A stretch of DNA of 64,000 bases from Elusimicrobiota bacterium (GTDB taxonomy: Bacteria > Elusimicrobiota > Elusimicrobia > F11). The position numbers are program-made. Every line of letters begins with the position of its first letter. Position 1 is the first letter of the stretch. This document shows, in pieces, positions 18,001 through 21,000 of the stretch. The stretch is from the NCBI GenBank assembly GCA_044221725.1, contig JBGAON010000001.1:576001-640000 (forward strand). Direction: 5' to 3'.

Positions 18001-21000
18001 CAGCGTTCTTTGGGCTCACGGGAGAAGAAACATTTGATATTTCGGGTGTCGAGTCGAACTTAACACCGCTAAAGGTGTTGAAAGTCAAAGCCACAGCGCC
18101 GGACAAGTCGGTGAAAGAGTTCAACGTCGTCATGCGCATCGATACGCCCAAAGAAATCGAATACTACCAGCACGGCGGCATTTTGCCGTATGTGCTTAGG
18201 CAAATTTTGAAGTAATAAAGCAGAACCCCTCCTCTGATTGTATTCCCTCTCCCTTTAGGGAGAGGGTTAGGGAGAGGGAAAGATGCGGCAATTCGCAAAG
18301 AATCTGCGGAAGGATCAAACCGATGCAGAAAATCGACTTTGGTTTTTCCTGCGAAACAAGAGATTGGGCGGACACAAGTTTTATCGCCAGTTTGTTTTTG
18401 GTCCTTATATCGCTGATTTTTGTTGTCGGAGAAAAGGGTTGATCATTGAGCTCGATGGAGGGCACCATGCGGAAGCGAAACTCAAAGATGCGATTCGAAC
18501 AGAATATCTGCGAAGGCGGGGATTTAAGGTTCTCCGGTTTTGGAATAACGAAGTGATGAAGAATGTGGAACTGGTTTTGGAAGTGATTCTGAAAAATCTT
18601 GGTGCTGGGGACTCTTTCCCTCACCCTAACCCTCTCCCTAAAGGGAGAGGGGATACATTTTATTATGAAGACTGACACGACTCCTCAAGACTCACTCGTT
18701 CGCGACGTCACCGCGCTTGGAACGCAAGCGCGGGTGGCGGCGCGCGTGCTGGCAATGCTTGAGGTCGATGTGAAAAATAAGGCGCTGGGCGCGATGGCGC
18801 AGGCCATTGTTGATGCAAAGAAGTCCATTGTCCAAGCAAACATGAAAGACGTGGAAGCCGCCACAAAAGCGGGGCAGAGCAAAGCGCTGATTGATCGATT
18901 GACGTTGAACGACGAACGTGTCGAAGGAATGGCCCAAGGGTTGCGCGAGATGGAGCAGCTGAACGATCCGACCGGCGAAGTCCTTCGCGAGTGGACGCGC
19001 CCCAACGGTATGCGGATTCGGCAGATTCGCGTTCCGCTTGGTGTGATCGGAATGATTTACGAAGCGCGCCCGAACGTAACAGCCGAAGCGGCCGGTTTGT
19101 GTTTGAAATCGGGCAACGCTGTTATCCTGCGCGGCGGCTCGGAGGCATACCACTCCAACAAGATTCTTATTGATCTGATTTCCGATGCTGCGTCAAAAGC
19201 CGGTGTGCCCGCGCACGCGATTCAGATGTTGCCGCCACAAGATCGGCGCAGCACAAGGATATTGTCGCAGTTGAACGGGCTCGTTGACTTGATTATCGCC
19301 CGCGGCAGCGAAGAGATGATCAAAGACGTGTCGGCCAACGCGACGGTGCCGGTTCTCGGTCACGGGAAGGGCGTGTGTCACGTTTACGTCGACAAGGCAG
19401 CCGATATGGACAAGGCCGTGAGCATCGCTTTCAACGCAAAGGTGCAACGCCCGGGCGTTTGCAACGCGATGGAATCATTGCTCGTGCACGAGCATATGAT
19501 GTGGGACATCCTGCCCAAAATTTCTGGCAAGTACATTAAGGCGGGCGTGGAGATGCGCGGCGACGATCGCGTGGTGGGCCTTATTCCGCAGGCGAAGCCG
19601 GCGGGGGAGCGCGATTGGGGCACCGAGTATCACGACAAAATTGTTTCGATTAAGATTGTTGATAGCTTGGACGACGCAATTGAGCACATCAACAAATACG
19701 GATCGGGCCACACGGACAGCATCATCACCGAAGACAAAAAGGCGGCCGCAAAATTTGAAAAGGCCGTCGATTCGTCCTGCGTAATGGTGAACGCGTCCAC
19801 GCGTCTGCACGATGGTGGCGTGTTCGGGTTCGGATCCGAGATCGGAATTTCGACACAGAAGTTGCACGCGCGCGGCACGATGGGCCTGCGCGAACTCACC
19901 ACCACGAAGTACATCGTCGAAGGCACCGGACAAATTCGCGAATAAATGAGAATCGGATTCCTCGGCGGGACGTTCGATCCGGTTCACTACGGTCATTTGC
20001 AGTTAGCGAAAGCGGCGCTCGACCAATTAAACCTCGACCACGTTTATTTTGTGCTGTCGCCGTTATCCCCGTTTAAGAAAGCTAAGAAGATTACCGCTGT
20101 GTCGGAACGCCTCGACATGTTGCGACTCGCGATTGATCGACACGATGAATTTAAAATTGGCGAATGGGAATTGAAGCGACGCGGTCCCTCGTACACCGTG
20201 ACGACGCTCGCCGATTACAAGAAAGATCATCCGAAGCATCAGCTTTTTCTTATCGTCGGATCGGACAATCTGTCGCGATTCAACGAGTGGAAAGATCACG
20301 ACAAAATTTTAAAATTGTCCACGTTGGTGGTGGGCCGACGGCCCGGAATGCCACTCGAAATCAGCAACGTGGATGGCCAAATGATGTTTTTAAAAGGTGT
20401 TTTTCCTCTCATCTCTTCGACTGAAATTCGAACCATGTTTTCAAAAGGTCAGGAACCCTCGGGATTGCCGCTCTCGGTCAAGCGTTACGTGCGAAAGAAC
20501 CATTTGTATGGATCCTAAGAAGCTTTACAAAGTGCTTCGTGAGAAATTGAAAGAAGAACAATCGCGCAACCGGTTTGAACATTCGGTGAGTGTCGGGGAC
20601 TTGGCGGCCAAGCTTGGGGCGAAGTACGGCTGGAATCCGGATCGCGCGCGGCTGACCGGTCTTCTTCACGATTGCGTAAAAGAATGGAAACCGAAGAAAC
20701 TCAAACGTTACGCGCGCAAGAATAAATTGCGTATCCCGGCGAAGAATGTCTTGCTTCAAATATCTCCGAACATGTTGCACGCGTATGTGGGCGCGGACTT
20801 CGTGAAGAAGCAGGGTTGGATTCGAAACAGCCGCGACCTGCGGGCGATTTCGTCTCACACGTTGGGTCGACCAGGAATGACCATTGAAGAAAAAATACTG
20901 TTTGTCTCGGATTTTTCCGAGCCGAAGCGCCGCTACAAAACTGCCGATGATATTCGGAAAATCGCAATGAAAGACCTCGATAAAGCATTTCGCGAAACGC

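Follow-up and report, generated by a model that had tools for sequence, protein, structure and literature searches.

BoxC repeats have, to our knowledge, been known in Escherichia coli since the 1990s with both their source and their function left unexplained. The elements formerly called BoxC or PIT are described as TM-ECO, a unit made of a pyrimidine stem, a loop, a purine stem, a second loop, and a second purine-rich strand (PMC4666352). The single-stranded E. coli motif forms a stable triplex in vitro, as judged by CD and NMR on an oligonucleotide, and the triplex was absent in duplex DNA and by in vivo footprinting (PMC4666352). The same source reports raised sequence variability around the motif, the inability of a purine-motif triplex to form in RNA, and the absence of promoter or terminator activity in PIT elements (PMC4666352). 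A search for a mobilizing gene found no transposase or integrase close to TM-ECO (PMC4666352, 2015), and the main text of that paper contains zero occurrences of ycjD or of any nuclease. Likewise, a literature search, with most subscription papers and supplements outside its reach, returned no paper linking DUF559/YcjD with BoxC-type repeats. The repeat family and the protein family are thus already known, and what is new here is the pairing of the two.

The window analysed here is a stretch of 64,000 nucleotides from an Elusimicrobiota genome (GCA_044221725.1, contig JBGAON010000001.1, positions 576,001 to 640,000), in which a DUF559 gene lies between acnA and proA. The features of the window, in its own coordinates, and of the second DUF559 locus of the genome are as follows.

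15480..18215, + strand: acnA (aconitate hydratase), the host gene upstream, outside the element
16688..16795: gene-less motif doublet, in frame, in a variable loop of acnA
18245..18279, + strand: left-end BoxC/TM-ECO-type motif, following the pattern of PMC4666352; full inverted arm 18239-18283
18283..18675, + strand: DUF559 gene (YcjD family, Vsr-like), 130 aa, Pfam DUF559 E 1e-39
18617..18651, - strand: right-end motif, an inverted copy with its third strand aimed into the gene; full arm 18613-18657
18665..19945, + strand: proA-like gene (aldehyde dehydrogenase family), the host gene downstream, start set by alignment with relatives
45445..45558: gene-less inverted doublet of the same family, with a small hairpin in the second loop of the left copy
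C2:137447-137755, plus a 5' fragment at 137100-137222: second DUF559 gene, framed by family C copies

The gene at 18665..19945 is one that we take to be proA from its motifs and from the survey that preceded this analysis. All three genes, acnA, DUF559 and proA, are on the + strand, and the DUF559 stop codon overlaps the proA start. The survey's finding that the DUF559 gene is bracketed by inverted hairpins of a family B was confirmed around the ORF 18283-18675, where the arms 18239-18283 and 18613-18657 measure 45 nt, are 96% complementary at a spacing of 329 nt, and form the longest inverted pair returned by a repeat search within 17000-20000. The cassette hence has the terminal inverted repeats by which insertion sequences and MITEs are recognized. 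The left motif runs from a pyrimidine stem over a 4-nt loop, a purine stem and TTA to a G-rich third strand, which stops 3 nt 5' of the DUF559 ATG, in the ribosome-binding position, and the final ~20 codons of the gene run through the right-hand motif. The cassette is real and not an artefact. When contigs from four sets were compared with 14500-21500, coverage was sparse and uneven, and none of them spanned the cassette. Elsewhere in the window, 9226-13611 on the - strand encodes a repetitive protein of surface type, 1461 aa long, in which many ~100-aa domains resemble one another.

The DUF559 protein matches PF04480 with 134.9 bits against a curated cut-off of 20.6, and scores 96 with the NCBIfam ycjD equivalog, short of that model's cut-off of 218. 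Its domain spans residues 2-106 with E56, D58, H62 and D69, and these E, D, H and D residues are invariant in 28/28 aligned DUF559 proteins. The matches by fold or sequence are N. gonorrhoeae NGO0050 (3HRL, E 7e-24) and the catalytic domain of I-Bth0305I (3R3P, profile E 8e-6, Foldseek TM 0.69), then Vsr; the predicted structure (pLDDT 92) suggests a Vsr-like fold, and Foldseek also returned mitoribosomal Vsr-like chains at E 2e-3 to 4e-2. Of the earlier description as a Vsr-like PD-(D/E)xK nuclease, the first half holds; the motif is EDxHD rather than the canonical PD-(D/E)xK. A domain search of the window gene returned DUF559 and MTES_1575 only, with no HUH/Y1 and no GIY-YIG. The 130-aa protein is a single domain lacking an N-terminal DNA-binding domain, has no intron or intein context and no Rfam intron match, and no cytosine methyltransferase adjoins it, its neighbors being acnA and proA. 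At the thresholds used, DUF559 homologs were found in 35 of 72,556 plasmid records, several of which are chromosome-sized, and in 3 of 50,697 phages, and up to 7 copies occur per genome.

By their sequence pattern, the hairpins of the cassette are members of the published BoxC/PIT/TM-ECO family. The pattern searched for was a C-rich 9-nt stem, a loop of 3-6 nt, a G-rich stem, a 3-nt loop, and a second G-rich strand; both ends of the cassette fit it, and the variant with TTA as second loop (type A) matches exactly at both. Of 5426 E. coli genomes, 4765 have matches to the window repeat, the median number of places being 7. The survey was right in associating repeats with the gene, but what it took for a plain hairpin is a hairpin plus a mirror third strand, from a known family.

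The third strand was studied in 111 distinct elements from 80 DUF559 loci, chosen on the hairpin alone, with G to G and A to A or T scored as a mirror match. It mirrors the purine arm perfectly over 8 positions in 67 of the 111 (shuffled stems: mean 14, maximum 27 in 5000), and the remaining 44 are imperfect or plain hairpins. The relation is that of a mirror rather than of a direct repeat (54 vs 6 among 110 asymmetric stems). With the register taken from G alone, the base opposite a stem A was A in 72 cases, T in 58, and G or C in none, whereas foreign-stem controls had G there in 570/1523. When one element was drawn for each of 25 stem patterns, 13.0 were perfect against 1.5 after shuffling. 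The third strand therefore obeys the triplet rules of a purine motif, by which membership of BoxC/TM-ECO is judged. Because neither duplication nor inversion makes a mirror relation, the pattern suggests that a DNA triplex of the purine-motif type is under selection, and the three-strand covariation would be comparative evidence that selection acts on such a structure in bacteria.

The second DUF559 gene of the genome is 47% identical to the first, and detection of motifs in its flanks upheld the earlier claim that family C frames it. The 5' part of this cassette (C2:137037-138136) is duplicated, resembling BIME-type amplification, and a tandem array of family C with a period of ~71 nt is found at C4:568201-568600. 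A profile search of the genome returned the two DUF559 genes plus one 5' fragment and nothing further; apparent DUF559 remnants that tblastn placed next to solo motifs were rejected, being the translated motif sequence itself. The genome holds 30 family-B-type hairpin cores and 10 strict TM-ECO matches (both cassette ends and 8 further copies), with 0 in two Markov-simulated genomes; the count rests on this control, the reversed genome (5 vs 41 matches) being an unclean one in which real elements leave traces. The family C pattern has 28 matches, one of them spurious, so that the 25 and 21 places reported earlier for the two families were reproduced in order of magnitude though not exactly. 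For the acnA doublet, the relative G205 has one at the same place with its two motif types in swapped order, and five other relatives have none. Another in-frame doublet occurs at C3:483036-483122, within a kinase gene that is presumably ispE-like, judging from its motifs. A single degenerate motif copy is seen at 54265-54300 of the window.

The association of gene and motif was measured with a detector set on flanks of the own phylum and then applied to a held-out second phylum of small genomes; the loci were the best-scoring DUF559 matches, weak or partial ones (L020, L023-L025) being left out. A motif lies within 200 nt at 30/31 loci of the own phylum, with both motifs inward and the gene framed at 20/31, and the held-out phylum gave a motif nearby at 26/30 and framing at 17/30. 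In other phyla the strict detector was positive at 3/8 loci, and similar hairpins were seen by eye at five more. Shifted-control strand-windows were positive in 3/356 (own phylum), 1/330 (held-out) and 0/96 (elsewhere). A repeat search in the first-pass relatives left the inverted pair undetected in 3/10. Framed cassettes measure 385-521 nt. Of the 31 loci with a scored ATG, 15 have a third strand whose end lies no more than 7 nt from an ATG. A minority have motifs that point outward, as in the acnA doublet (L037, L041, L090, L092, L095, L103, L105). At least 25 stem variants surround DUF559 in this set. The idea of a private variant at every locus is borne out only in part; the same variant turns up in different phyla, and a cassette may bear unlike variants at its ends.

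Across genomes, repeat richness was defined as 5 or more pattern matches, including those in the gene's own flanks, and full-length DUF559 as E below 1e-20, which 34 of 201 own-phylum genomes contain. With patterns drawn from DUF559 flanks, and with genomes that are kin and hence not independent, so that P values are overstated, 28/34 genomes with DUF559 are repeat-rich by either pattern as against 15/167 without (pattern 1: 22/34 vs 15/167; pattern 2: 12/34 vs 1/167). Inside one genus the figures are 5/5 and 3/36. The second phylum gave 28/39 with the gene and 13/212 without, one of the 13 being a poly-C/G artefact, and at 10 or more copies 22 and 11 genomes, respectively. Exceptions exist on both sides: fewer than 5 copies were found in 6/34 and 11/39 of the genomes with DUF559, and G220, at 95% completeness, gave no DUF559 hit despite 61 matches. 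General mobile-element load is a confounder of this co-occurrence, because the presence of Y1 transposase tracks repeat richness too (36/100 vs 7/101). Among genomes without DUF559, 11/72 with Y1 and 4/95 without it are repeat-rich; within Y1-positive genomes, the figures are 25/28 with DUF559 and 11/72 without. A motif was found within 350 nt of a Y1 gene at 1/30 loci, a sample that is mostly IS200-like and under-samples the RAYT type, and this genome's own Y1 gene has no motif within 350 nt.

Comparison with relatives bears on the movement of the cassette. G205 has it at the same acnA-proA site and gave 31 matches to a 4.6-kb query; G206 and G207 lack it there and gave 3 and 4 matches, in the flanking genes only. 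The contrast described earlier within the genus, that family B is abundant where the gene is present and missing where it is not, was thus reproduced, but G206 and G207 carry DUF559 genes of other clades elsewhere, along with other motif variants (21 and 39 matches), and gave no family B hits. Short empty acnA-proA junctions occur in G208, G209, G211, G214 and G150, and the empty sites of relatives are too diverged for the cassette ends to be judged. Unrelated hairpin repeats occupy the gap in other cases (L058:1124-1223 in G207, L060:1211-1402 in G206, L065:2895-2977 in G210), and the G207 repeat nearly matches the consensus that PMC11893778 gives for NTS; the gap seems to collect repeats of several systems.

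One DUF559 clade (58-75% identity) has family C ends in five genomes at sites that are not syntenic, and the three genomes compared with this one share no flanking genes with it. On the DUF559 protein tree the host phyla are interleaved, and stem class, assigned by eye for 56/69 loci, changes 19 times against 25.3 when shuffled (2/200, with 22/53 forks unresolved), a weak tracking. In six of the ten long frames scanned, DUF559 sits within a host protein; in another it ends an HsdR fragment, and the remaining three are read-throughs at the N-terminus. The host proteins are RNase HII (2 genomes), riboflavin synthase, an Elp3-like radical SAM enzyme, HsdM, and an Eco57I-type methylase. In Sinorhizobium, the IS4-family element ISRm16 starts right after the downstream motifs of the cassette (L104:1130-1703). 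As copies are multiple, phyla interleaved, sites non-syntenic, and landings in essential genes in frame, the non-orthologous sites and the in-frame sites in housekeeping genes support a cassette that is itself mobile over evolutionary time.

E. coli offers a view of the same pair in a different state. In K-12, BoxC copies lie on the 3' side of ycjD and no motif lies on its 5' side; EC31 has an intact inverted BoxC copy at the end of the ORF, and in N. gonorrhoeae a motif lies upstream of the gene for the NGO0050 homolog. The ycjD gene is kept at one site in 3378/5426 E. coli genomes. O157 has 13 motif matches without ycjD, and three ycjD-bearing strains have 25, 18 and 36. Copy places number 13-29 with ycjD (37 rows) and 11-15 (7 rows) or 2-8 (15 rows) without it, one plasmid row being left out; little weight is given to these numbers, which follow phylogroups and come from a query that itself holds BoxC. 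The gene stands where eefRABCD is missing, at least two losses having been inferred (PMC12817139). In the loci compared here, the BoxC-ycjD segment occupies the place of the missing eefRABCD (L012:4041-4830 vs L070, L071), and the hairpin 5' of ycjD resembles the one 3' of eefD. Many E. coli copies have a further conserved stretch ~35 nt upstream of the stem (L152, L154, L157, L161), with a complementary stretch downstream in some, so that the unit may exceed the 56-nt BoxC.

Polymorphic sites, namely 8 of 19 K-12 sites and 4 from two other strains, were compared across strains. At 8/12 of them, 3-53 nt or a REP array is replaced by 55-190 nt with variable ends; one is clean with a 3-nt overlap, one has an internal 12-nt loss in the third strand, and two lie at larger rearrangements, gain and loss being inseparable at all 12. 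Fixed ends with a target-site duplication were not found at these sites, bar the one 3-nt overlap. Replacement of this type argues against a fixed-end transposon of the classical kind and would fit nick-initiated recombination or long decay. A fixed breakpoint 5 nt 5' of the BoxC stem in O157 was considered as a cut site and rejected, as it is explained by a deletion between two direct BoxC copies, which lie 7.7 kb apart in another strain.

The anatomy of the cassette, the covariation of the three strands, the co-occurrence of gene and repeat, the intactness of the catalytic residues, and the unrelated and in-frame cassette sites are matters of direct observation. The reading we favor, and hold to be probable though well short of assured, is that the motifs are BoxC/PIT/TM repeats and DUF559/YcjD their cognate enzyme, which nicks the folded strand while host repair spreads the copies. 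A strand that is transiently single, be it the lagging strand, a transcribed region, or incoming DNA, would fold at the motif into a purine-motif intrastrand triplex; DUF559 would bind the folded motif and nick next to it at a constant position, in the manner of SsnA and RAYT at their hairpins. Host repair or recombination at the nick would then copy single motifs, doublets, tandem arrays and, rarely, the whole cassette, and such copying would leave replacement-type junctions rather than target duplications. The G-rich third strand would double as ribosome-binding site, and the gene would be expressed from transcripts of the host. What the enzyme recognizes is probably the fold and a few stem bases, because variants change often on the protein tree yet stay with the clade inside one family. 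The element would measure ~0.4-0.5 kb, comprising a triplex motif, the DUF559 gene and an inverted triplex motif, and would be selfish or semi-domesticated, a picture as probable as the favored reading of which it is part. A stronger version, which we put forward tentatively and would sooner doubt than accept, is that DUF559/YcjD recognizes the intrastrand triplex, and that motif, gene and motif form an autonomous element which, without a DDE, HUH or serine transposase and without splicing, spreads BoxC and inserts in frame.

Other explanations have to account for the same evidence. The pair may be domesticated, with the enzyme cutting or binding motifs for the host, either to steer the recombination of incoming DNA or to rescue triplex-stalled forks, and with repeats spreading by ordinary recombination and slippage. 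SsnA offers a precedent, as it steers recombination of incoming DNA (PMC11893778), and the single E. coli site of ycjD with 3' motifs only, the rarity of DUF559 on plasmids and phages, and the O157 deletion between direct BoxC copies agree with it; yet several copies per genome, interleaved phyla, non-syntenic sites and in-frame landings are what a moving cassette would produce, and we consider domestication unlikely. Still less probable is that DUF559 is captured cargo of MITE-like doublets moved by another enzyme, such as RAYT, IS200 or an IS4-type element. This would explain why Y1 presence tracks repeat richness, why same-genus genomes have NTS-like and other hairpin repeats in the acnA-proA gap, and why an IS4-family element adjoins the Sinorhizobium cassette. 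However, motifs are nearly absent from the mostly IS200-like Y1 loci, including the Y1 gene of this genome, the DUF559 association persists inside Y1-positive genomes, and one and the same gene with invariant catalytic residues in many phyla is not expected of cargo.

A role in RNA, in which the motifs act as terminator, stabilizer or ribosome-binding site and DUF559 is a Vsr-like protein that binds or processes RNA, would suit the many copies directly 3' of genes, the third strands close to the ATG in about half of the scored loci, and the mitoribosomal Foldseek matches. The mirror rule, however, is that of a purine-motif triplex, which is impossible in RNA, and PIT elements were reported without promoter or terminator activity (PMC4666352), to which the missing Rfam match may be added; this role is accordingly rated slightly below that of a passenger, as quite improbable. 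The possibility that the recognized fold is a G-quadruplex is the most improbable that we weighed. The purine half of the window motif does contain four runs of three G, but only 26/67 perfect-mirror elements have four such runs, neither the A-to-A/T mirror rule nor the conserved pyrimidine arm would be needed for a quadruplex, and the E. coli oligonucleotide was a triplex by CD and NMR (PMC4666352).

DUF559 is a testable candidate for the spreader of BoxC, with ycjD at hand in E. coli K-12 and a solved homolog in 3HRL. An enzyme that cuts the triplex fold would be a third unrelated nuclease family converging on the RAYT/Ssn anatomy and possibly a tool for single-stranded DNA, and it would account for the short proline/glycine-rich inserts and DUF559 domains in many unrelated proteins. 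If the autonomous version is true, swapped stem sequences would retarget the element.

The comparison with described systems begins with the repeat itself. The elements resemble BoxC/TM-ECO in their inverted doublets, strain-variable copy number, and exact pattern at the window ends; the paper saw intergenic copies only, whereas here the motif frames a nuclease gene and enters reading frames (PMC4666352). With regard to the enzyme, E. coli YcjD and NGO0050 (3HRL) belong to the same protein family as the window DUF559. I-Bth0305I and Vsr share its catalytic E-D-H-D residues and fold, and differ in that DUF559 has no N-terminal DNA-binding domain and no intron or intein, adjoins no cytosine methyltransferase in the window, and is framed by repeats (PMC3239194).

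The Ssn nucleases with their NTS/SRM repeats are alike in being small single-domain nuclease genes between their own repeats, in repeat-rich genomes that carry the gene, and flanking on both sides is of similar order (42% for Ssn; 17/30 to 20/31 for DUF559). Ssn is, however, a GIY-YIG enzyme with cleavage shown, whereas DUF559 is a predicted nuclease of the Vsr-like EDxHD type whose repeat is a hairpin plus third strand (PMC11893778). RAYTs with their REPs and REPINs share the repeat-framed enzyme gene, the ~100-nt inverted doublets, the tandem arrays, and the near-absence from plasmids and phages; they are single-copy, non-jumping and vertically inherited, while DUF559 cassettes are multi-copy, cross sites and phyla, and land inside genes (10.1101/2021.07.10.451892). 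DUF559 also lacks the HUH/Y1 domain. The proposal of DUF559 as a third class of repeat-associated nuclease thus stands as regards association, RAYT/Ssn-like anatomy and cassette mobility, while its repeat-generating part, in view of the replacement-type E. coli sites, is something that we infer. By analogy, the DUF559-motif pair would work like Ssn-NTS and RAYT-REPIN and be a member of neither, since its fold differs, its repeat is three-stranded, and its gene is multi-copy and mobile.
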